Source of the DNA: Candidatus Thorarchaeota archaeon | Lineage (GTDB): Archaea > Asgardarchaeota > Thorarchaeia > Thorarchaeales > Thorarchaeaceae | Length of the DNA stretch: 46,596 nucleotides | Reading direction: 5' to 3' | Assembly (NCBI GenBank): GCA_016933575.1 | Contig: JAFGAR010000152.1 | Span: 1-46,596, forward strand | In this document: positions 298-12,095 of the stretch, piece by piece | Layout of the letters: each line of letters opens with the position of its first letter | How positions within the stretch are numbered: position 1 is the stretch's first letter | Notes under the pieces: generated by a model | What the model saw: only the letters and a program-made list of their open reading frames with translations | Databases searched by the model: none | Told to the model about the DNA's origin: nothing | Made by a program: the position numbers and the translations under genes

Positions 298-701
298 TTT
301 TTCTAGATACCACCTTCCTAGTTGATATTCTGAGAAAGGATACTGCAGCAATCTCCTGGTTGAGTGACTTGGAAGAACAGGCCTTGTATACTTCCGAGGT
401 CAATGTTTTTGAACTCTATACAGGTCTCTTTCGAATCTCGGAGAATTCCAAGGCAAAGCTGAAGAAGAGAACCTTTGAGCTCGAACAGCTTCTCTGTCGA
501 ATGGAGGTTCTCTCATTTGACCGAAACTCCGCCATTGAATCTGCAAAGATCTACTCTCACTTGATGAATAAAGGCGAACCTATTGGTGCTCGTGACATCA
601 TGATTGCTGGTGCCGCACTCTCTAGAGGAATAACTCGATTGGTGACTCGTAATGTCAGGGAGTTTCAGAGGATTCCATCTCTGAATGTTGAATCCTACTA
701 G
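294..701 (+). CDS. vapC: VapC PIN-domain toxin
   Basis: N-terminal FLDTTFLVD, FELYTG, D-IMIAGAAL and LVTRNVREF PIN motifs. Confidence 0.9.
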   Translation: MIFLDTTFLVDILRKDTAAISWLSDLEEQALYTSEVNVFELYTGLFRISENSKAKLKKRTFELEQLLCRMEVLSFDRNSAIESAKIYSHLMNKGEPIGARDIMIAGAALSRGITRLVTRNVREFQRIPSLNVESY

Positions 702-750
702 ACTAGTACATTACATGAGTTGCTATCTTTAAGGGCTCAGAGTAGATACT

Positions 751-845
751 GGCGGGAACGCGGCGGAATCGTCAGGTTGCCCGAGGCGCAGATGAATCCC
801 TTTACCTGTTCGTTATGTTGAGCCACCCTTTCATTTTTCACCCAT
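751..845 (+). repeat. Cassette-delimiting repeat copy 1 (subtype B core)
   Basis: GTTGAGCCACCCTTTCATTTTTC from 817; the upstream part aligns with copy 6 (GGGAA.GCG...ATCGT..CAGGTTG.CCGA.GC.CAGA..AAT..CCCTTTACCT). Confidence 0.85.
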
Positions 846-952
846 CTATCCAACTCAGTGGATTCTCTATGAATCAACATTCTCCATGTTCATTGTGCAA
901 CACACAGCCGTTGTGTTTATTACAGTAAATGTGTACAATATGGTGAACGACT

Positions 953-1204
953 ATGACAACAATCTCGATAAAAGAAGACACACGAAAGAGACTACTTCGG
1001 ATAGCAGGCGAGCTTCAGAGAAAGACACTAACAAGAGCAGATTTTGATACGGTCATTCAGTTCTTGATCGATGCATATATTGAGAAACAAATAGATATTG
1101 AAGCCTGGAACAAGTTCACAGCTCCAATTTCAGGAGTAGATTTTGATTCCATCTATAACGATCTTATTCTGGAGAGGCACCTTGATGACGAACAAGGTAA
1201 ATGA
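953..1204 (+). CDS. Putative antitoxin (small DNA-binding protein)
   Basis: MTTISIKEDTRKRLLRIAGELQ N-terminus typical of archaeal antitoxins; overlaps the PIN gene. Confidence 0.75.
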   Translation: MTTISIKEDTRKRLLRIAGELQRKTLTRADFDTVIQFLIDAYIEKQIDIEAWNKFTAPISGVDFDSIYNDLILERHLDDEQGK

Positions 1205-1610
1205 AACAACAGTACTAGATGCTGGAGTGTTGATTGCACTCGCACTTGGAGAATCTTCTACGATGGAGCTATCTCAGAATATTATCAATCATCATATATC
1301 TTATGCATGCACAGAGATTGCTCTCTGCGAATTGAGCTATATTCTCTGCCGACGATTAAGTTGGAAAGAAGCAACGGAAAAAACAGAAAACCTTGTACGA
1401 TCCTCTCTCGTCGCAGTCATTCCAACTCATGCGCTATGGACTGAGGCAGCAAAAATAAAGTGTAGAGCAACAATTGCATTACCGGATTGCTTCACAATCG
1501 CTGCAGCACGCTTAGCCAAAGGAAAAGCGATGTTTGTTCGCAGGGAAAAAGAGATAGTGGATGCAATTAATCGGAAGCTGATCTCAGATACTATCGAATT
1601 CGTTGAATAA
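1185..1610 (+). CDS. vapC: PIN-domain (VapC-like) toxin
   Basis: VLDAGVLIA, ELSYILCRR and PDCFTIAAA PIN motifs; start moved to the ATG at 1185. Confidence 0.85.
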   Translation: MTNKVNETTVLDAGVLIALALGESSTMELSQNIINHHISYACTEIALCELSYILCRRLSWKEATEKTENLVRSSLVAVIPTHALWTEAAKIKCRATIALPDCFTIAAARLAKGKAMFVRREKEIVDAINRKLISDTIEFVE

Positions 1611-1676
1611 TATATTTCCAATAATTATGAGAGCTAATTATAATCGATTAAACTTATTCAGGACGGCGCAATATCC

Positions 1677-1885
1677 GTAGCGGAAGCTGCGGATGGAAGA
1701 AGTCGAGAGTCATTCTCACTTCCATCAATCACCTCCTATGTCTTCTACTTCATAGAGGTAGAAGCAGCTTGGCTCACAGCCCTTCGGGGTTGTGAGAGAA
1801 GTACGGGCCTTCGACGGGGTCAGGTATTCACGGGTACTTTCCCATTACCTGTCTTTGTTGAGCCACCCTTTTCATTTTTCACCCA
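1677..1885 (+). repeat. Cassette-delimiting repeat copy 2 (long form with structured extension, subtype A core)
   Basis: Aligns over about 190 nt with copy 4; CAGGTA...TACCTG core; GTTGAGCCACCCTTTTC at 1857. Confidence 0.9.
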
Positions 1886-1988
1886 TCAATCAAATCCAGT
1901 GGACATTCTATCAATTGACTTAAGAATCAGTTAGGCTCTATGTTCTTTGACTTGATTTGCGTGGTAGTGATAAGGTGGCTACTGAAAA

Positions 1989-2444
1989 ATGATTAGAGAT
2001 TATTGGGCAAAATGGATCATGGTTATTACAACTCTGTTTGCCCCCTTTGGTGTGTACGCTTTCTCAGTACGCAACTCTATCCTCACGGTATCAATCCACG
2101 CTATGTTATGGGGTATCATGCCAGATTCGTCTGGAGATACTGAGTTGATACTATTTGGCACGTACATCATTATAGGAAGGGGTCTATTTTATGGCATCTT
2201 TAACATCTGGTTTGGAATAGAGGTCATCAGATACTTCAATGACTACTCTCGTAGACGAATGGCTATCCGATTGGGAATTCTATCACTAGTCTACCCCTTT
2301 GCAATGGCAATCATCTCTTTGCCTTGGCTTTTGCATTCAACGACATTTGAGTATCTTGGACCAATTCCTATCCAATTTGTTGTTGGTCTCTTGTTGATGA
2401 AGTACTTTGGAGAGCAAAAACCTCTAGGACCTTGGAGTGATTGA
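1989..2444 (+). CDS. Hypothetical multi-pass membrane protein
   Basis: 151-aa ORF with about four hydrophobic segments. Confidence 0.7.
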   Translation: MIRDYWAKWIMVITTLFAPFGVYAFSVRNSILTVSIHAMLWGIMPDSSGDTELILFGTYIIIGRGLFYGIFNIWFGIEVIRYFNDYSRRRMAIRLGILSLVYPFAMAIISLPWLLHSTTFEYLGPIPIQFVVGLLLMKYFGEQKPLGPWSD

Positions 2445-2523
2445 ACTAATTCCATTTCCTCTTCTTATGACCTGTTTCTTACAAAATCTATGAAGTTATA
2501 AGTACTTATCAACGTTATAAGTT

Positions 2524-2721
2524 ATGATAGATATGAGTGAGACCACAACGATTCCGCTGACAAAAGAGACCCGTGACCTCCTGAAGAAATATGGTCAGAA
2601 GGGTGAGACCTACGATGAGCTAATCCGTCGTTTACTTGAGATGGCAGAACAGATGGAGTTTGCTAGAGCACAGAAACGAATTCTAGAAACTGAGGAGTTC
2701 GTTCCACTTGACCAAGTTTAG
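2524..2721 (+). CDS. Antitoxin partner of the RelE-like toxin
   Basis: TTTIPLTKETRDLLKKYGQKGETYDELIRRL with C-terminal EEFVPLDQV; overlaps the toxin gene. Confidence 0.8.
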   Translation: MIDMSETTTIPLTKETRDLLKKYGQKGETYDELIRRLLEMAEQMEFARAQKRILETEEFVPLDQV

Positions 2722-2989
2722 GATTTTACTCTCGCAGACTGCAATTTCGCAAATGAGTTTACTTAATACAAAACAGAAGGCGAGGGTCATAGATGCATTA
2801 GCAAGTCTTGAGGATAACCCCTTCAAAAGAAGATCAGGTTCAGACATCAAGAAACTTGTTACTCCTACTGAGCCACCACTTTATCGATTACGTATTGGTG
2901 ACTTTCGTGCAATCTATTTTGTTATTGATAATGAGGTCAGAGTTACAGAGATTATTCATAGAAGTAAAGGCTACAAGTGGTTGGAATAG
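2708..2989 (+). CDS. relE: RelE/ParE-family toxin
   Basis: Basic 93-aa protein with LYRLRIGDFRAIY and C-terminal IIHRSKGY motifs. Confidence 0.88.
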   Translation: MTKFRILLSQTAISQMSLLNTKQKARVIDALASLEDNPFKRRSGSDIKKLVTPTEPPLYRLRIGDFRAIYFVIDNEVRVTEIIHRSKGYKWLE

Positions 2990-3013
2990 AATACTCTCAG
3001 ATGAATTGATACC

Positions 3014-3085
3014 GGCTAACGGGGTCAGGTAACCAGGGAAACTTTCCCAGTACCTGTAATTTGTTGAGCCACCCTTTTCTTTTTG
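3014..3085 (+). repeat. Cassette-delimiting repeat copy 3 (short form; best attC-like example)
   Basis: GGCTAAC-GGGGT-CAGGTAAC-CAGGGAAACTTTCCCA-GTACCTG-TAATTT-GTTGAGC, followed by CACCCTTTTCTTTTT. Confidence 0.9.
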
Positions 3086-3180
3086 CAATATCGTCAAACT
3101 CTGATTTTTTCTTTCCCTTCTATCACTGGAAACGTAGAACTCTACAAGTTTATATACCTTAATAGTGACTCAGTTACTGG

Positions 3181-3474
3181 GTGTTACCAGTGTCCACAGT
3201 GAAGTTTGACCTCAAAGATGACTTGGAAGAATTGCAGGCTCGTCTATATCTTGACACGCGAAAGCGTCTGACAAAGAAGGAGATACTGGAAATCGTCTTC
3301 AGAATTGGACTTGAAAACTATGAACTTATAGTGAATGAGATACGACTGATGGATTATCCTTTGGACGATGATGTTATTCAAAAAGTCCTCTCATTGGCAG
3401 AGGATCTTGGACCTGGTAGCGAAGACCTCTCATTGAGAGTGGATGATATGGTATACGGTGGCGATTCCACGTGA
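3181..3474 (+). CDS. Putative antitoxin
   Basis: Acidic 97-aa ORF ending DLSLRVDDMVYG, overlapping the PIN gene by 4 nt. Confidence 0.75.
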   Translation: MLPVSTVKFDLKDDLEELQARLYLDTRKRLTKKEILEIVFRIGLENYELIVNEIRLMDYPLDDDVIQKVLSLAEDLGPGSEDLSLRVDDMVYGGDST

Positions 3475-3887
3475 CTGTCCTGATAGATAGTAATGTCATC
3501 ATTGCTCTCTTGAACACGCGCGACCGCAACCATCCAAAAGCGAAAGAGATTCTTACGAAGCTCAAGGATCAGGAGTATGGAATGAGGCTTACGATTGATT
3601 ATGTCCTAGATGAAGTGCTCACGACTCTTTGGATGCATACTCACCAAAAGAGTGTGGTGAAAAAGGCTTACGAGCTCATTCGTGGTACTCCTAAATTCAT
3701 CAAATTTGATTACATAACACCTGAAGTTTTAGACCTCGCCTGGGAGAAATGGGAAAGCTATGCTAAGTGGCCTGAAAAACCCTTGAGCTTCACCGATTGC
3801 TGCATTCTATCATTCATTGATGCTAATGATGTTGGATATCTGGCTACCTTTGACTCTGACTTTGCAGGTCTTTGTCAACTAGTATAG
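3471..3887 (+). CDS. vapC: VapC PIN-domain toxin
   Basis: VLIDSNVIIA, VLDEVLT, LSFTDC and LATFDSDF motifs. Confidence 0.9.
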   Translation: MTVLIDSNVIIALLNTRDRNHPKAKEILTKLKDQEYGMRLTIDYVLDEVLTTLWMHTHQKSVVKKAYELIRGTPKFIKFDYITPEVLDLAWEKWESYAKWPEKPLSFTDCCILSFIDANDVGYLATFDSDFAGLCQLV

Positions 3888-3970
3888 AAATAATGAAATG
3901 AAGATGTTATGTCTGAAATATGATTTTTAGAGCGAAGTCCATTAATACTTCTAATTAAAGAACTCTTTCA

Positions 3971-4170
3971 GTAGCGGAATCTGCGGATGGAAGAAGTTGA
4001 GAATTCTTCATTCTCCATCAATCACCTCCTATGTTTTCTACCATAGAGGTAGAAGCAGCTTGTCTTGCAGTCCTTCGGGAATGTAGGAGAGGTACGGGCC
4101 TATGACTGGGTCAGGTAATCGGGGAAACTTTCCCAGCACCTGTCTTTTGTTGAGCCCCCTTTCAGTTTTC
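3971..4170 (+). repeat. Cassette-delimiting repeat copy 4 (long form, subtype A core)
   Basis: Homologous to copy 2 from GTAGCGGAA onward; GTTGAGCCCCCTTTC at 4149. Confidence 0.9.
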
Positions 4171-4263
4171 TTCGTAATTATTGGATGAGTGGAAGTCAAG
4201 TTTATCTTCTTACTTATCCACTTTCATGAAGATGTGTGCAAATTAACCAAGAGAGAATAATCA

Positions 4264-5031
4264 ATGAAAGTCAAATGTTTTAATTGTGATGAAGTGATTG
4301 AAGCGGACAACCTTGAAGTGCTAGCATATGCTTTTGTCACCCATGGTCAGGAGAAACATTCATGGGAGTATCCCGAGGAGGCGATAAGAAATTATGCCTG
4401 CAATTACGCCGAAGCAGTAGAGCGACTCACAGGTGATACTGAAAGAAAGGAGGAAATTGGCGAAATCACTATCCATCCGGTAACAGAGGACTCTATAGAT
4501 GATTGGCTGCAGTTTTTCGATCATGACGGTTTCGCTGATAATCCTGGGTGGGCATCCTGCTACTGCCTCCAACCACACTTACCTACGATAGACGAGAACC
4601 TAGATCGTCCATGGCGTGAATCACGATCAATCATGGTCAAACGCCTCCTAGAGGGAGTAACATTTGGGTACTTAGCATATGTCGATGACAAACCAGTGGG
4701 ATGGGTGAATGCCTCTCTGCGTAGTGACTATGAGCTTTTTCGACAAGTTGATCCAGATGGTCCCAAGTCCTCATCGGTAATTGGTATCTCGTGCTTTGTC
4801 GTTGCTCCTCCTTATCGAAGACATGGAGTTGCGTCTGCTTTGCTCGACCATGTGATTGAAGATGCTTCTACCCGAGGTGCATTATGGATTGAAGGCTACC
4901 CTCGCAATCAACCTGAAAACACCGATGCTGGACATTTTACAGGATCACAAAGCATGTATGCTAAGCGTGGATTCAAATCAGTTCTAATTCGAGAAAGAGA
5001 TACTGTGATGCGTTTGCGAGTACACCATTGA
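4264..5031 (+). CDS. GNAT-family acetyltransferase with a small N-terminal Cys/His domain
   Basis: CFVVAPPYRRHGVASALL acetyl-CoA motif; IEGYP...FTG...MY..RGF; N-terminal CFNC...H...H. Confidence 0.85.
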   Translation: MKVKCFNCDEVIEADNLEVLAYAFVTHGQEKHSWEYPEEAIRNYACNYAEAVERLTGDTERKEEIGEITIHPVTEDSIDDWLQFFDHDGFADNPGWASCYCLQPHLPTIDENLDRPWRESRSIMVKRLLEGVTFGYLAYVDDKPVGWVNASLRSDYELFRQVDPDGPKSSSVIGISCFVVAPPYRRHGVASALLDHVIEDASTRGALWIEGYPRNQPENTDAGHFTGSQSMYAKRGFKSVLIRERDTVMRLRVHH

Positions 5032-5083
5032 ATCGTATTTGGATTATCAGGAAATTACCGTTGTGATACCGTTCATTGTTAAT

Positions 5084-5253
5084 TGTACAAACTTGGACAC
5101 CAGAGTGAAGTACTCCCAGGAAACGGCACTGGGTGGACTCTATGAGGTCATGGATGTGTCAAGACAACCTCAACGTCCTGTGTCTGGCAGTAGTATATAA
5201 AGTCCAATAGCAATGGTTCAAACGATCATCTAATAGCTGTCCAACTTTGTCCA
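5084..5253 (+). mobile_element. 170-bp non-coding element with 16-bp terminal inverted repeats (MITE-like), copy A
   Basis: Ends TGTACAAACTTGGACA and TGTCCAACTTTGTCCA; homologous to the reverse complement of 11926-12095. Confidence 0.65.
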
Positions 5254-5267
5254 TATTTTTGGTAACT

Positions 5268-5315
5268 GTTAACAACCCTGAATATGTTCTTGTTGAGCCA
5301 CCCTTTTCTTTTTTC
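5268..5315 (+). repeat. Cassette-delimiting repeat copy 5 (minimal or degenerate)
   Basis: GTTGAGCCACCCTTTTCTTTTTT at 5292; only a short TTAACAA...TTGTTGA inverted repeat remains upstream. Confidence 0.8.
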
Positions 5316-5363
5316 AATTGTCAATTCGTATGAGTGAGCTTTCTATTCATCAACCAATGAAAA

Positions 5364-5759
5364 TTAATATCCCTCTATCTTGAGGTCAGGCACTCGACTG
5401 AAGTGCTTTGTATTCTTAGTGAGAAGTGTTTCGTTATTTACAATTGCAATAGATGCGATCATGGAATCTTCAGGGTCGATTGGTTGACCTTCCTTGATCA
5501 ATTGACCATGGATATTTCCAGCAAGTGCTGCACACTCCGAGTCGAGAGTTAATGTTCCCCAAGATAGTAGGATATCCATAATCTTTTTCTTCTCAGAAGA
5601 GGGTTTCTTTGTGAGACTTATTCCAACAAATAGTTCAAAGATAGAAGGTGATGAGATATTCGTAGATAGTGAATCTGCCTCAAGCATCTTTATTTTATCA
5701 ACCGCTGTTTTTCTCCCTCTCAAGAGGTCTATGATAAATGACGTATCCAGAAGCATCAA
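5364..5759 (-). CDS. vapC: VapC PIN-domain toxin
   Basis: LLDTSFIIDLLR, FELFVG, EDSMIASIA and LLTKNTKHF; paralogue of 294-701. Confidence 0.9.
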   Translation of the reverse strand: MMLLDTSFIIDLLRGRKTAVDKIKMLEADSLSTNISSPSIFELFVGISLTKKPSSEKKKIMDILLSWGTLTLDSECAALAGNIHGQLIKEGQPIDPEDSMIASIAIVNNETLLTKNTKHFSRVPDLKIEGY

Positions 5760-5992
5760 TCAGACATCTCCGTGACCATCTCAGTGATTCGATCTCTACT
5801 CCGAGATCTAATTGATGCTATTGCTTCCTGAATCACTTTGATGTCTTCTTCATCCAAGATACCAGCAATCTCACTGAGCCGCTTTCGCTCTGTCAATCTG
5901 TTAATTGTATCACTAAAACTCTCACCGGGTTTCTTCCGTGCTTTGAGTCTTGAGTATGCTTCGTCTGAAACAGAGATTGTCTTACTTCCCAT
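5756..5992 (-). CDS. vapB: VapB-family antitoxin
   Basis: SKTISVSDEAYSRLKARKKPGESFSDTINRL; paralogue of 40-297. Confidence 0.88.
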   Translation of the reverse strand: MGSKTISVSDEAYSRLKARKKPGESFSDTINRLTERKRLSEIAGILDEEDIKVIQEAIASIRSRSRDRITEMVTEMSD

Positions 5993-6078
5993 GTCTATAT
6001 GTATATGTCTGTGTACTTATAAATTCCTCGCGAATAGTAGTATCCTTAATCATCTTTGTCACTTATTGATTGGGAATA

Positions 6079-6212
6079 CAGCTTGTTCCTGCTCTTCGGA
6101 GCAGGAAGAGATACGAGCCTTCGATGGGGGGAATGCGACGCGATCGTGCAGGTTGTCCGAAGCACAGAGAATTTACCCTTTACCTCTCCTGTTGAGCCAC
6201 CCTTTCATTTTT
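6079..6212 (+). repeat. Cassette-delimiting repeat copy 6 (medium form, UUCG hairpin plus subtype B core)
   Basis: CAGCTTG-TTCCTGCTC-TTCG-GAGCAGGAA...TACGAGCC; GTTGAGCCACCCTTTC at 6191. Confidence 0.88.
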
Positions 6213-6309
6213 CTATTATTCATTATTACAATGGTCTAAAGGAGAATTGAAGGGTTAATTTCATTCTTCTATTGTTCCTTTTCGAATGTGATTTTGATGG
6301 AGATTTGGA

Positions 6310-7497
6310 TTATAGATTCTTTACAAAGTTCTTGCCAAAATCAATGCATCTCATGGAGGCTTCTTTATCGGGATTCCAAAGTTCACGGATTCCTTCACCG
6401 ATGATTCTGAAACCACCTTCCTCTAGTTTCTCATTGATCATTTTCACACCCTCTCCAGACCATCCATAGGAACCAAAGGCTGAAGCAAATTTTCCCTTGA
6501 ACTCCAGGCCTCGAATCTCCTCAAGAATACCTGCGACTGAGGAAAGTATACCCCTGCCAATAGTGGAAGAGCCTACAAGAATTGCTTTCGATTTAAAGAC
6601 CTCAGTGATGATATCATTCTTGTCAGATCTTGCTGAATTGAATAGTTTGACAACTATCTTCTTGTCAGCAGACTTAATCCCTTCAGCTATAGCTTCAGCC
6701 ATTCTTCTAGTACTATCCCACATAGTATCATAGATGATTGTGATCCGATTCTCTTGATATTTATCTGCCCACTCCATGTATTTGTTGACAATTTGCAGTG
6801 GATTATCGCGCCATATTACGCCATGACTAGTACAGATATAGTCTACAGGAAGTTTGAATCCTATAACCTCTTCGATCTTCTTAGTCACTAGTTTGCTAAA
6901 GGGAGTAAGAATGTTAGCATAGTATTTGATACACTCCTCGAAAAGTTCGCATTGGTCTACTAGATCATTATACATGTTTTCTGAAGCAAAATGTTGGCCA
7001 AAAGCATCATTGGAAAAGAGGATGTTTTCTCCAGTCAGATAACAAAACATACTATCTGGCCAATGAAGCATAGGAGCACTTACAAACACAAGTTCTCTTG
7101 AACCAAGACTCAGTTTATCACCAGTCTTGACAATGTGGAAGTTCCAATCCTTGTGATAATATCCCTTGAGTATCTTCTTTGCTTGAGCTGTACAATAGAT
7201 GGGTGTGTCCGGAATGGCCTCCATTAACAATGGCAATGCTCCACTATGGTCTGGTTCTGAATGATTGACAACTATGTAATCTATTTCATCTAACGGAATA
7301 ATCTCAGAGAGTCTGTCAACAAATTCTTTGCTAAAGGGTGTCCAAACTGTGTCTACCAAAGCCGTTTTCTCATCCTTAATCAAATAGGAATTATAGGTTG
7401 AGCCTTTATGGGTTGAATATTCCTCGCCATGGAACTTTCGTAGTTCCCAGTCAATCTTACCAACCCAGAATACATTATTTCTGATTTCAAAACTCAT
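6310..7497 (-). CDS. fprA: Flavodiiron protein (FprA/NorV-like; MBL plus flavodoxin domains, no rubredoxin domain)
   Basis: NHSEPDHSG, HWPDSM, SNDAFGQH, SHG diiron ligands and AFGSYGWSGE flavodoxin motif. Confidence 0.92.
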   Translation of the reverse strand: MSFEIRNNVFWVGKIDWELRKFHGEEYSTHKGSTYNSYLIKDEKTALVDTVWTPFSKEFVDRLSEIIPLDEIDYIVVNHSEPDHSGALPLLMEAIPDTPIYCTAQAKKILKGYYHKDWNFHIVKTGDKLSLGSRELVFVSAPMLHWPDSMFCYLTGENILFSNDAFGQHFASENMYNDLVDQCELFEECIKYYANILTPFSKLVTKKIEEVIGFKLPVDYICTSHGVIWRDNPLQIVNKYMEWADKYQENRITIIYDTMWDSTRRMAEAIAEGIKSADKKIVVKLFNSARSDKNDIITEVFKSKAILVGSSTIGRGILSSVAGILEEIRGLEFKGKFASAFGSYGWSGEGVKMINEKLEEGGFRIIGEGIRELWNPDKEASMRCIDFGKNFVKNL

Positions 7498-7613
7498 TTC
7501 TCTTCTCTCCGTCCCTAATCTATAGCTGTATTTGCTATTTAGTGCTTTAGATGTAACTTCTTTGAGAGAATTGTTCTAATCAGAATGAAAATCTCAGATG
7601 GACTTGGGGTATA

Positions 7614-7686
7614 GGCTGACGGGGTCAGGTATTCAGGGGAACTTTCCCAGTACCTGTATTTTGTTAAGCCACCCTTTTCTTTTTCA
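7614..7686 (+). repeat. Cassette-delimiting repeat copy 7 (short form, subtype A)
   Basis: GGCTGAC-GGGGT-CAGGTA...TACCTG-TATTTT-GTTAAGCCACCCTTTTC. Confidence 0.9.
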
Positions 7687-8490
7687 TTTGGTGAAGAAAT
7701 CTTGGAGTTCATCAAGAAGATTTCGCAGATCGAGACTTAGATCATAATAAGAACCATATTTCCATTCAAATCCCCACTTTCTCAGACTAGTTTCAATCCG
7801 TTTTCCTCTAATGAGTATATCACCTAGGAAGTTAGGTTTAATGAAAATGGACGACCATGTATGTTGTAAATCGAATTGGTTCGCTGGTATCTCTCTGAAC
7901 TCTTCAATGGCTGTGTATATTGACTTCAACATTGATACACTAAGGTACCATTCTGGAGAGATACAATCCTCTAATGCTCCTTCAAAGAAATCAAGATACA
8001 ATAACCTTGCTGTACAATTTGGGTAAATGAGCAACACGGTAATTTTTTGGGCTTCTCTCTCCTCACAATAATTTCCATGAAACTTTAAGGAAACCGCAGC
8101 ACACGGCAGATTCTCAGGAATGCGGGAGTTATGCCACTCTTTCAATAACTGACTGTAGCCCTCTCTTAGCTCCTGTATGGTTAGATCAGGCTCATCGTTA
8201 AAGAGTGGAAGTGGTATCGTTCTGATTGGATGCCAATAATTATCGTAGAGGACCTGTCCGGCCGTTGATCCTGGACAATTGAATCTGCCTGACAGATCCT
8301 CTCTTCTATGTTCCTTCGCAATCTCAAGGAAGATAGGGGTATAAGCATCCACAGGAAATTCACCACAAATCGTTCCTACAAGTCTAATACTACCCGGCAC
8401 TACAACCTTCTCGAAATCTATGAGATTTCTCAAATGACCCCAAATCAGTTGGAACTGAGGCGTAGTGACATCTGCCTGCGTGCTCATCAT
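7684..8490 (-). CDS. Hypothetical protein
   Basis: 268-aa ORF directly downstream of the dehydrogenase; its stop codon lies in the tail of repeat copy 7. Confidence 0.65.
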   Translation of the reverse strand: MMSTQADVTTPQFQLIWGHLRNLIDFEKVVVPGSIRLVGTICGEFPVDAYTPIFLEIAKEHRREDLSGRFNCPGSTAGQVLYDNYWHPIRTIPLPLFNDEPDLTIQELREGYSQLLKEWHNSRIPENLPCAAVSLKFHGNYCEEREAQKITVLLIYPNCTARLLYLDFFEGALEDCISPEWYLSVSMLKSIYTAIEEFREIPANQFDLQHTWSSIFIKPNFLGDILIRGKRIETSLRKWGFEWKYGSYYDLSLDLRNLLDELQDFFTK

Positions 8491-8492
8491 GT

Positions 8493-9707
8493 TTAATTAC
8501 GGCCTTTGCTCTTTTTCTCCATGGCATCCATTATTCGTTGCTGTGCAATCTCTAATGCTACTTGTCTTGGTGTGAGTTTTCTATTAATAGCATCATTAAT
8601 TACACGTTCAGTGTTTTTCTTGATCTTTGTTTCAATCATAGAGAATGCCTCTTCCTCTGTTCCATTCTTATACTCAACATAGGATCCAATCACACCTCCC
8701 GCATTAGCTAGGAAGTCAGGTATGATGATGACATTGTTTTCGAAGAGGTATCTTTCTGCTATCGGGGTAGTTGCATTGTTAGCTCCCTCAACTATCATCT
8801 TTGCTTTGATTGTCTGGCATGTTCCCTCATTTATGACATTTCCAACAGCACATGGAACAAAGATATCGCAATCAAGACCCAAGATAGCATCTCTTGCAAG
8901 GACAGCTCCTTGTTTACAATTTTTGACTGACATTCTTTCACTTGTTGCATATGCAAATGATTCTGCTAAATCGATATCTATGCCCTCCTTATTGTAGATA
9001 GTTCCCCAGTAATCGTTAAGCGCGATAATCTTGGCTCCCTTATTGCTCAGAAACTTTGCAATCCATAGACCTACATTTCCAAAGCCTTGGATGACAACTC
9101 TGGCATCTGCTAAGTCCTTTGGTAGGTCTATCAAGTCTCCAATCATCTCGTATGATTTCTCCAAAGAAACACCCACACCAAATCCCGTTGTACCGAGCTC
9201 ATGCGGGATACCACCAAGCTTCGCAGGTTTTCCAGTTGCGGCCTGACGATCGCCAATAGTTTCGACAAATGCATCAATCTCTTTTTCGCCTACATTCATA
9301 TCGGGGGCAGCAACATAACGTGTGGGTACTGATGGTGCAATTTTTTCAGCAAATGCTCTGATATATTGCAATTTATCAATTGCATAGGGGTCAGCTCGAA
9401 TTCCTGATTTTGCTCCCCCAAAGGGTATATCAGCTAGTGCACACTTCCAGGTCATTGCACGTGCGAGGCCAAAGACCTCTAAGGGTGTAACATTGGATGA
9501 GATTCTAATTCCTCCCTTGCCAGGACCAAGAGCAGTGTTATCAATGACAAGGAATCCCTGCATCCCAGTATTGGGATCATAGACTTGTATGACCTCTTCA
9601 GGGCCCCATGAGTCCAGAAATGATGAAACATTCACTTGATCAAGTACTTCTATGACATGTTTAGTACTTAGTACAGTTTTGCCATCCATTGCTGACATAA
9701 GTATCAC
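8493..9707 (-). CDS. Glu/Leu/Phe/Val dehydrogenase
   Basis: GPGKGGIR, PFGGAKSG, APDMN, QGFGNVG, EGAN and PDFLANAGGV motifs. Confidence 0.93.
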   Translation of the reverse strand: MILMSAMDGKTVLSTKHVIEVLDQVNVSSFLDSWGPEEVIQVYDPNTGMQGFLVIDNTALGPGKGGIRISSNVTPLEVFGLARAMTWKCALADIPFGGAKSGIRADPYAIDKLQYIRAFAEKIAPSVPTRYVAAPDMNVGEKEIDAFVETIGDRQAATGKPAKLGGIPHELGTTGFGVGVSLEKSYEMIGDLIDLPKDLADARVVIQGFGNVGLWIAKFLSNKGAKIIALNDYWGTIYNKEGIDIDLAESFAYATSERMSVKNCKQGAVLARDAILGLDCDIFVPCAVGNVINEGTCQTIKAKMIVEGANNATTPIAERYLFENNVIIIPDFLANAGGVIGSYVEYKNGTEEEAFSMIETKIKKNTERVINDAINRKLTPRQVALEIAQQRIMDAMEKKSKGRN

Positions 9708-9932
9708 TTAAGTATTCCAGAAACGAATATAATATAAACATAATGCATTAGGAATAAATAAAAATACCAATTAATAACACTAATACTTCATTTAATGGTA
9801 TTTTCTAACAATTATTCAGTCTCAAGGAAGGAAAAAGTGGCTTAGAATGCATTAATTTCACTATTATCTACTATTTCCTAAACTGAACTAATGTATTCTT
9901 AATATTACCATAATTGCCATCAAATTTATATA

Positions 9933-11084
9933 TTGATAGGCAATTATGGGACAAGGATTATTCATTATTGTAAAATATTAGCTATATGGATATTCAATAA
10001 TCCGAGGTACGACATGATGAAAGAACTATTGAGTGATCCTCTCAATATCGATATTCTAAGACTTGCATGTTCAGGTCAAGGTGTAGATGTAAATATCAGT
10101 GAATTATCCACCCTGCTAGGAAAACACAGAAATACCATTCAATCAAGATTTGAAAGCCTTATACAACATGAAATAATAGATCACCCTTTCCTTCCTTTTC
10201 AATGGATAATGAATGAACTTCCACTTTTTGTCATTGAAAAGATTAATCTGCCTCGTAATGCCAAAACAAATCTATGGATTGAACTCGATCCGAATATCCT
10301 TGCAGCGTTTTTCGTAAAAGAGGAAGAGTACAATACCCTAATGATTGAACTGCATCAGGACATCTATAATTATCAAGTATGGAAAGAAAGAATCATTGGT
10401 GAAAACCAGATATTATTAAAGGATGGGTTTGATCATATTCCCTCTGAACCATATTATTTGAGTACTAAGGCCATTATAAAAAATCGACCTGAATCAGCCT
10501 TCGATGATTTCAAAGATAATTTTCATCGAGGATATCATCCAAAAGTCAATGGACTAAATCTGGATGATATTGCTATAGACCTTCTAGAAGCCCTTCTCTC
10601 TGGAAAAGGCATCCACATTAATCCAAATAGTCTAGCAAAATCACTCAATGTCCATCGAAAGACAATACAACGTCGACTTGAGATGTTGCTGGATGAGAAG
10701 ATAGTACTTCCGCCAACCTGTCGTTTTCCAAGGATATGGACACCTCCTGATTATTTTCTGGTCATATCTTTGCTTGAAATTCGAAAAAACAAAAACAGAA
10801 TTGCGAAGCTACTTACCGATGATTCTCATATCACTATGCTATTCAAGGCAAATGTGGGTCGATATAACCTACTTTCATTCAACAGTTTCTACAGAATGGA
10901 TGACTACCTAGCATGGGAAGAAGAGTATGATCAGAGATTTCCTGATACTTTTGGGGCAGTGAAAAACTTCTACCTTTCTCCAGCTATGACATTTGCAATA
11001 AATCAACAATACGTATCCTTAGAGTACCTTAATGCACTAAAAGAAAAAGTTAGAGGAAAGGAACTCATGAAGACTATGCAGTAG
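9933..11084 (+). CDS. Duplicated HTH (Lrp/AsnC-like) transcriptional regulator
   Basis: Two internal repeats (NISELSTLLGKHRNTIQSR and NPNSLAKSLNVHRKTIQRR); divergent from the dehydrogenase; real start probably near 10014. Confidence 0.7.
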   Translation: MIGNYGTRIIHYCKILAIWIFNNPRYDMMKELLSDPLNIDILRLACSGQGVDVNISELSTLLGKHRNTIQSRFESLIQHEIIDHPFLPFQWIMNELPLFVIEKINLPRNAKTNLWIELDPNILAAFFVKEEEYNTLMIELHQDIYNYQVWKERIIGENQILLKDGFDHIPSEPYYLSTKAIIKNRPESAFDDFKDNFHRGYHPKVNGLNLDDIAIDLLEALLSGKGIHINPNSLAKSLNVHRKTIQRRLEMLLDEKIVLPPTCRFPRIWTPPDYFLVISLLEIRKNKNRIAKLLTDDSHITMLFKANVGRYNLLSFNSFYRMDDYLAWEEEYDQRFPDTFGAVKNFYLSPAMTFAINQQYVSLEYLNALKEKVRGKELMKTMQ

Positions 11085-11102
11085 TCAGTGGATAGAAGCA
11101 GA

Positions 11103-11168
11103 GGCTGACGGGATTAGGTATTCAGGGGTACTTTCCCATACCTGTCTTGTTGCGCCACCGTTTTTTCC
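11103..11168 (+). repeat. Cassette-delimiting repeat copy 8 (short form, diverged subtype A)
   Basis: GGCTGAC-GGGAT-TAGGTA...TACCTG-TCTT-GTTGCGCCACCGTTTTTT. Confidence 0.8.
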
Positions 11169-11314
11169 CATCTTGTATTTTGTAATTCTAGAAACATATG
11201 TATTCATTATCAATCCATGAATTTTCCTATGATTCTTAATTATCCCAAATATAGTATTATTGCAAAGTAGGCATTTTCCTCCAAAAATGATTTTATAAAC
11301 TCACGAAAATAACT

Positions 11315-11925: not shown

Positions 11926-12095
11926 TGGACAAAGTTGGACATCTCTTAGATATTTACTGAACCATTCTTATAGGTCTTTAAATACAACAGTCCAGAGATA
12001 GGATCGTGAGGTTGTCCTGACACGCATCTGACCTCACAGAGTCGTTCCCACTGCCGTTTCTGGGAGGACATCACTCTGGTGTCCAAGATTGTCCA
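11926..12095 (-). mobile_element. 170-bp TIR element (MITE-like), copy B, inverted relative to copy A
   Basis: Ends TGGACAAAGTTGGACA and TGTCCAAGATTGTCCA; interior homologous to 5084-5253. Confidence 0.65.

Follow-up and report, generated by a model that had tools for sequence, protein, structure and literature searches.

What are the repeats that separate small gene modules at one end of the contig C139 of a Thorarchaeota (Asgard archaea) genome, and why do they look like structured RNA? The whole 46.6-kb contig was analysed (hereafter the window); it belongs to G000, a metagenome-assembled genome (MAG) of 215 contigs with 6.9% contamination. Its first 11.2 kb contain eight repeat copies on the + strand, each ending in TGTTGAGCCACCC followed by an oligo-T run, with cores at positions 817, 1857, 3063, 4149, 5292, 6191, 7663 and 11149. 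The combined pattern of core and T-run had nine matches in the window, eight of which were the array copies, against 1.7 expected, and none of 100 shuffled sequences reached nine. Between the copies lie VapB/PIN pairs, a ParE pair, a GNAT gene and some larger blocks. Two copies are long (copy 2, 1673–1880, and copy 4, 3971–4170; 83% identity over 210 nt) and one is of medium length (copy 6, 6081–6212). A previous interpretation of the letters alone (the sequence-only reading) had considered this delimiter to be, or to derive from, a functional non-coding RNA (ncRNA) of about 200 nt ending in a U-tract. Our results support the derivation from a functional RNA ending in a U-tract, but not a new ncRNA: each long copy is very probably a duplicate of the 3′ terminus of the organism's own 16S rRNA gene together with the pre-16S 3′ trailer. 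A long copy comprises helix 45 with a GGAA loop, a hairpin of ~30 nt, the anti-Shine-Dalgarno (anti-SD) tail and then a trailer of ~150 nt. The trailer starts with a helix that masks the anti-SD and a variable UUCG side arm; it further contains the strands complementary to the 16S leader and ends in an oligo-T terminator.

The key evidence came from C186, another contig of the same genome, which carries three further copies on its minus strand. Read on that strand, C186 opens with the last 280 nt of an archaeal small-subunit (SSU) rRNA (RF01959, 189 bits, E = 4e-53), and this 16S sequence continues directly into the long-repeat sequence. Copy 2 matches this stretch at 93% identity over 147 nt, and its UUCG arm is the same. 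The part of C186 homologous to the window copies aligns to RF01959 positions 1440–1478, helix 45 included, and both copy 2 and copy 4 contain a helix 45 capped by a GGAA tetraloop and, after it, the anti-SD sequence CACCUCCU. The ~30-nt hairpin was likewise found in the resident 16S genes of G000, G001, G015 and G029. A search of the window (600–11300) against Rfam gave no relevant match at the gathering threshold or at E ≤ 1 and no SSU match, because the ~65 nt of 16S in each copy does not suffice for the SSU model. No 16S body adjoins the window copies, which follow toxin genes instead; they duplicate the end of the 16S gene and are not rRNA genes themselves.

The association with 16S extends across the family. 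Of the 36 other family members searched, 30 carried the repeat; all 24 genomes taken from other families of the phylum lacked it. In seven relatives (G017, G029, G030, G035, G012, G015 and G001), Rfam placed a 16S gene, either whole or cut by the contig end, directly upstream of the array on the same strand. The 23S gene is on the same strand and unlinked to 16S: it lies ~70 kb past 16S in G017 and, in G035, ~60 kb past the array copies. Unlinked rRNA genes have been reported before from Thorarchaeota (PMC8997704). On the far side of its promoter, 16S is flanked by a gene for an M1 aminopeptidase. A motif search of G000 for 16S and 23S found no further rRNA pieces. These findings describe a family-wide Asgard cassette array tied to the 3′ end of a single 16S gene, and they bear on how 16S and 23S became unlinked in this lineage. 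In G012, two repeat copies were also located on the opposite strand ~14 kb upstream of 16S (C81, ~53.9–54.5 kb); the repeat family is therefore not strictly confined to the downstream array.

The structure of the copies can be read against the pre-16S processing stem. The 16S 5′ leader holds GGCTCAACA..GCAGGTA and GCCTGTACTTCATCAAGC, which are complementary to TACCTGT..TGTTGAGCC and to GCTTG–hairpin–AGAAGTACGGGC of the trailer, respectively. RNAcofold predicted 53–64 intermolecular pairs between the leader and the resident trailer in five species, with the UUCG hairpin as a side branch of the duplex and, in trailers whose distal domain is of type B rather than type A, a second branching arm. 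Compensatory double changes were found between species in the basal helix (GGCUCAAC:GUUGAGCC, UGCUCAAC:GUUGAGCA, GGCUCGAC:GUCGAGCC and UGCUCAGC:GCUGAGCA). The core GTTGAGCC thus covaries with the leader; what conserves it is base pairing within the rRNA precursor. The window copies form 46–73 predicted pairs with the leader of the congeneric G017. Two 3-nt bulges 4 bp apart, as in a bulge–helix–bulge, were not evident in the predicted duplexes, although no systematic search was made.

In the original sequence at the resident gene, helix 45 and the anti-SD are parts of the ribosome, and the helix that follows could cover the anti-SD. A long processing stem would form by pairing of the 5′ leader with GCTTG, GAAGTACGGGC, the distal domain and GTTGAGCC, with the UUCG hairpin as its side arm, and the oligo-T run would terminate transcription. 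The tetraloops, G–U pairs and covariation found in the copies would follow from these constraints on the rRNA precursor. Two details of the sequence-only reading need correction. A GCTTG/CGGGC stem of five pairs had been drawn below the UUCG hairpin; GCTTG and GTACGGGC pair better with CAAGC and GCCUGUAC of the leader (5–6 and 10–12 pairs). The possible pseudoknot between TTCTAC and GTAGAA overlaps the anti-SD helix and is instead a mutually exclusive alternative helix; its columns scarcely vary and are hence uninformative for covariation.

The hairpins that had been recognised in copies 2, 4 and 6 are real and were found at the positions given for them (with the equivalents at 3971–4088 in copy 4 and 6081–6107 in copy 6), as are the RNA-level signatures on the + strand. 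The + strand RNA of copy 2 folded at −87.2 kcal/mol (z = −6.8), and none of 200 shuffled sequences folded as well, whereas the minus strand reached −68.7 kcal/mol (z = −3.75). The stronger + strand fold fits the G–U pairs on that strand. Covariation in the UUCG arm, which had been claimed from three copies, held in a larger set: 48 non-identical copies from ~25 genomes contained 43 distinct arm sequences, 32 of them with a UUCG loop, with a mean folding energy of −10 to −13 kcal/mol versus −3.3 kcal/mol after shuffling. When the arms were aligned on the loop, 88% of stem cells paired, compared with 70% (maximum 76%) when the 3′ arms were shuffled, and stem positions 2–8 each showed three to six canonical pair types. 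One pair of the anti-SD helix occurred as TA (20 copies), AT (15), GT (3) and CG (1). In the ~30-nt hairpin, the outer stem paired in 36–39 of 39 copies, and the inner pair 41–55 varied among TA, TG and CG. These pairs were counted using our own scripts, as the consensus given by RNAalifold on a MAFFT alignment was poor and partly wrong. The covariation stems from differences between species in their pre-rRNA trailers. RNA signatures and covariation can thus pass passively to DNA repeats copied from an rRNA precursor, which calls for caution in ncRNA discovery.

Whether the array copies are relics or working RNAs was considered from their state of preservation. Their 5′ starts are spread over ~20 nt between TAACAAGG and GCGGAAGC, within the 5′ arm of helix 45 or immediately ahead of it, and the shorter copies form a nested series of 5′ truncations that ends with only the core. 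Helix 45 cells were paired in 183 of 225 cases in array copies (81%) versus 123 of 126 in resident-type copies (98%); the frequent loss of its 5′ arm would be unexpected for an RNA selected for its own fold. The UUCG arms were also somewhat weaker in array copies (−10.1 versus −13.3 kcal/mol in resident-type copies). The array copies are probably at most terminators and recombination homology, and not free-standing ncRNAs.

Several observations weigh against the identification of the copies as duplicated 16S ends or against their being relics. The 16S 5′ leader of G000 itself is absent from the assembly, in which C186 and C139 are separate contigs. Resident-type copies in the alignment were called by an upstream ACAAGGTA motif, which array copies of G035 can carry too. 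Array copies are no more diverged than resident-type copies in the proximal domain (match to consensus of 0.89 versus 0.885), and the anti-SD CACCTCCT is intact in 21 of 25 array copies and in all 14 resident-type copies. Array copies may therefore be of recent origin, or gene conversion or a degree of selection may keep them alike. The core sequence GTTGAGC matches the R′ consensus of integron attC sites, GTTRRRY, and all copies keep the same 3′ end. On C186, two metatranscriptomes of the same study yielded only short contigs over universal 16S stretches, one of which ran on into the canonical anti-SD and probably derives from other archaea.

These points bear on three other explanations, the first of which retains a function for the array copies as RNA, for example as 3′ untranslated region modules recruiting rRNA-processing enzymes, leader decoys, anti-SD regulators, or, as the sequence-only reading had suggested, a ribozyme, a reverse transcriptase (RT) template or a recombinase-guiding RNA. 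The strong + strand fold, the resident-like conservation of the proximal domain, the mostly intact anti-SD and the retained complementarity to the congeneric leader all speak for such a role, and both substitutions between the UUCG arm of copy 4 and its homologue in G001 yield wobble pairs. Nevertheless, every structural feature is already explained by the resident pre-rRNA, the net energy gain of leader pairing is modest relative to shuffled sequences, and a truncated helix 45 and nested truncations to the core alone do not suit an RNA element. No ribozyme or guide-RNA family in Rfam 15, including the IS110 bridge RNA, matched positions 600–11300, and neither an RT nor a partner recombinase was found with the arrays, either in the most frequent cassette families or by the searches for recombinases described below. 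We therefore consider functional RNAs very unlikely here; the suggestion of a new ribozyme or guide RNA at this locus was a false lead and is removed. An artefact of assembly or binning, in which rRNA-flank reads of several strains collapsed into one contig, is scarcely credible. G000 is indeed a contaminated MAG in many contigs with its 16S broken at a contig end; however, the copies are 66–93% identical to one another and separated by unique genes, the DNA run X1, which may come from the source sample, contains 99% of sampled words of window 600–8000 and its contigs tile C186, and 30 genomes assembled independently show the same layout, in some cases on contigs of 120–243 kb.

The third explanation, integron-type attC sites, requires a closer look at the cassettes. 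A census of 132 array open reading frames (ORFs) from 14 loci was dominated by PIN (18), VapB (9) and ParE (6) genes together with HicA, MazE, Fic and GNAT genes. The modules of the window are also found in G001, G012, G017 and G027, where their surroundings differ. Two 5′ junctions were read closely (window 3062 with G001 and 1849 with G012), and in both of them homology begins at or just before TGTTGAGCC. The VapBC-like module and the long copy downstream of it remain homologous to G001 until GTACGGGCC at 4110, the junction of the proximal and distal domains, where the distal domain changes between type A and type B. The junctions differ in place, and breakpoints therefore occur at more than one site in the repeat. 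Distal domains are mostly of type A in G017 and G009, mostly of type B in G001 and G012, and mixed in G000. Separately, the 5′ junction of the ParDE module (2477–2990), which follows a membrane-protein gene in the window and a GNAT gene in G012, has no repeat copy in either genome (window 2460–2490); some modules are thus joined without a tail copy.

Under the attC explanation, a tyrosine recombinase, encoded elsewhere or unrecognised, would act on a folded single strand at G|TTGAGCC, with the 16S trailer as an attI-like entry site and the long copies as imprecise events that took the 16S end along. In addition to the R′-like core and constant 3′ end, the co-oriented array rich in toxin–antitoxin and GNAT genes, the imperfect-palindrome geometry of type A copies, which type B and core-only copies do not share, and the cassette homologies beginning at or just before TGTTGAGCC are consistent with this explanation, and Thorarchaeaceae MAGs with attC clusters and no IntI have been described (Ghaly et al. 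2022, PMC9668308). Against it, PF00589 was absent from G017, G012 and G035 and from the neighbourhood of every array, and the gene upstream of 16S is the M1 peptidase. Because the core covaries with the rRNA leader, no DNA-level reason is required for its conservation, and the G–U pairs favour + strand RNA. In one shared cassette, homology breaks off halfway through the repeat, which would not happen if an attC site travelled whole, and the core-only copy (5291–5313) is unable to fold as attC. On balance, attC sites are an unlikely explanation; the conserved core, "attC-like" as it looks, forms one strand of the stem in which the rRNA is processed.

Turning to the agent of spread, a search for recombinases of the tyrosine, serine, HUH and IS110 types turned up none within or next to the arrays, and all matches to PF00589, PF00239, PF01797 and PF01548 lay outside them. 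No recombinase or RT was found among the 25 commonest of the 88 families formed by the 132 array ORFs, and the IS110-type genes of G000 are located on other contigs. HNH nuclease genes occur inside the arrays of G017 (C205:135182–135304, just upstream of a long copy) and G029 (C14:41994–42122); none was found in G000 or G012, and LAGLIDADG matches were not in arrays. Because no dedicated recombinase was found, we favour homology-driven recombination as the simplest agent, with an unrecognised site-specific enzyme acting at the core as the main rival. The window copies are junctions in an array of mostly toxin–antitoxin modules, which in this family has accumulated directly behind the 16S gene. 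Cassettes would enter and leave by recombination within the shared tail sequence. Each entry would leave one tail copy on the 16S gene and displace another behind the cassette, so that the 5′ extent of a copy would record how much of the tail the cassette had carried.

Two forms of the resident 16S end within one genus hint at exchange between the array copies and the end of the 16S gene. The end is either the canonical GGATGGATCACCTCCT (G017 and G012) or carries the 30-nt hairpin (G000, G001 and G015), and the proximal trailers differ between the two forms as well. G017 and G012, canonical at the resident end, carry the hairpin form among their array copies. It could be imagined that the tail copies are a working reservoir, in which array recombination repeatedly swaps the end of the only 16S gene, array transcripts that carry an anti-SD and a strand complementary to the leader couple cassette expression to ribosome biogenesis, and genes are captured without an integrase. 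We regard this proposal as doubtful; if true, Thorarchaeota would own a system of integrase-free gene capture that uses the rRNA processing stem as its recombination site. The 30-nt hairpin was also considered as a mini-intron and rejected: the only two cuts that restore GGAUGGAUCACC fall inside a perfect 8-bp helix, and two 3-nt bulges 4 bp apart could not be fitted. A second extra hairpin of ~29 nt (TCGATTCACGTTTCGTGAACGACGG...) was observed in the resident 16S of G000 (C186 3109–3138, minus strand), between GUCGUAA and ACAAGG at the helix 44/45 junction.

Compared with known systems, the long copies resemble the archaeal SSU 3′ end (RF01959) and pre-16S stem in the GGAA-capped helix 45, the ATCACCTCCT tail, the covarying leader complementarity of > 50 pairs and the oligo-T run. 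They differ in being detached from a 16S body, often without the 5′ arm of helix 45, and the Thorarchaeota form has the extra ~30-nt hairpin before the anti-SD. Sedentary chromosomal integrons and clusters of attC sites lacking integron-integrases (CALINs; PMC9668308) share the co-oriented cassettes of one or two genes, the richness in toxin–antitoxin and acetyltransferase genes and the GTTRRRY-like 3′ boundary. In contrast, the repeats described here are copies of an rRNA trailer, some including part of the mature 16S, with a core covarying with the leader; no IntI was found, and homology breakpoints are not limited to one crossover point. The study of archaeal CALINs, which included Thorarchaeaceae, never mentions rRNA (Ghaly et al. 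2022, PMC9668308). The core motif was not found in its supplements, and the identity of its Thorarchaeaceae attC sites with the array sites could not be confirmed. Our results nevertheless bear on the reading of archaeal "integrons" reported without integrases. We found no published description of 16S-tail copies as cassette boundaries.

Integrative elements accrete in tandem at the 3′ ends of tRNA and tmRNA genes, such as archaeal elements of the SSV and pNOB8 types and the tycheposon islands of Prochlorococcus. As in the present array, insertion duplicates the 3′ part of a stable-RNA gene, leaving direct partial copies between accessory blocks beside the intact gene. Unlike these elements, the array has the 16S end and spacer as its target, and it consists of 1–2 kb modules with nested copy lengths and no integrase found. 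The features of the eight copies are listed in Table 1. In G001 and G027, the copies that follow this VapBC-like cassette are homologous to the proximal trailer of copy 4.

Table 1. Positions of the repeat copies and their parts in the window
Feature	Position	Strand	Remark
Copy 1	745–845	+	Short; distal domain type B, core and T-run
Copy 2, helix 45 duplicate (ATCCGTAGC-GGAA-GCTGCGGAT)	1673–1694	+	GTAGC-GGAA-GCTGC at 1677–1690
Copy 2, lineage-specific ~30-nt hairpin GATGGAAG...CTTCCATC (GATGGA...TCCATC), inner GAGA/TCTC	1692–1726	+	Between helix 45 and anti-SD
Copy 2, anti-SD tail ATCACCTCCT	1728–1737	+	
Copy 2, helix masking the anti-SD, ACCTCCTATG / CATAGAGGT	1731–1759	+	Supported by pair counts
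Copy 2, alternative helix TCTTCTACTTC/GAGGTAGAAG	Overlaps masking helix 1731–1759	+	Predicted when the anti-SD is omitted
Copy 2, GCTTG, trailer strand pairing with leader CAAGC	1767–1771	+	RNAcofold of leader and trailer in relatives
Copy 2, variable UUCG-capped side arm (C-UUCG-G)	1773–1796	+	Same sequence as the arm behind the resident 16S of G000
Copy 2, GAAGTACGGGC, trailer strand pairing with leader GCCUGUACUUC	1798–1808	+	10–12 contiguous pairs in 5/5 species
Copy 2, distal domain type A (GACGGGGTCAGGTA...TACCTGT)	1813–1852	+	Pairs with the leader in G017
Copy 2, core GTTGAGCCACCC, 3′ strand of the basal processing helix, and oligo-T	1857–1879	+	Compensatory changes of leader and core, 5 species
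Copy 3	3014–3084	+	Short; distal domain type A
Copy 4, helix 45 remnant	Within 3971–4030	+	GGAA-looped helix at 3971–3984; 5′ arm cut at GTAGC; loop-closing pair broken
Copy 4, extra hairpin	3986–4019	+	
Copy 4, anti-SD	4021–4030	+	
Copy 4, proximal trailer	4031–4099	+	Masking helix to 4050; GCTTG 4058–4062
Copy 4, UUCG arm	4063–4088	+	One mismatch
Copy 4, GAGGTACGGGC	4089–4099	+	
Copy 4, distal domain type A, core GTTGAGCCCCCT and T-rich tail	4103–4170	+	Core 4149–4160
Copy 5	5291–5313	+	Core and T-run, nothing else
Copy 6	6081–6212	+	Trailer starting at GCTTG; 79% identity to the resident trailer of C186
Copy 6, UUCG arm	6086–6107	+	
Copy 6, GAGATACGAGC	6108–6118	+	
Copy 6, distal part		+	Type B domain, core 6191–6202, then T-run
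Copy 7	7590–7684	+	Short; matches the trailer of the canonical-form 16S of G017 from TCTCAGATGGACTTGGGGTATAGGC on
Copy 8	11102–11165	+	Short; last in the array, most diverged

Some further observations were made outside the family and around the array. In G048, which belongs to another Asgard family, the last ~30 nt of 16S and the start of the trailer are duplicated ~1 kb downstream (L073 305–400 and 1283–1400), and the pair brackets an ORF with a LAGLIDADG-like motif; no such duplicate of the 16S end was found within 15 kb in four other non-Thorarchaeota Asgard genomes. A 21-nt probe that runs across helix 45 into the beginning of the hairpin also had a match in one contig of a MAG labelled Chloroflexia and in one of a MAG labelled Deltaproteobacteria, which could reflect chance or mis-binning, and viral contigs scanned with three patterns gave no match. 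Finally, a dispersed repeat of ~170 nt, present in inverted orientation at window 5084–5253 and 11926–12095, brackets 6.7 kb of the array. Further copies are located near the ends of contigs C212, C101, C163, C215 and C34, as expected of a miniature inverted-repeat transposable element or an insertion sequence end that breaks assemblies.

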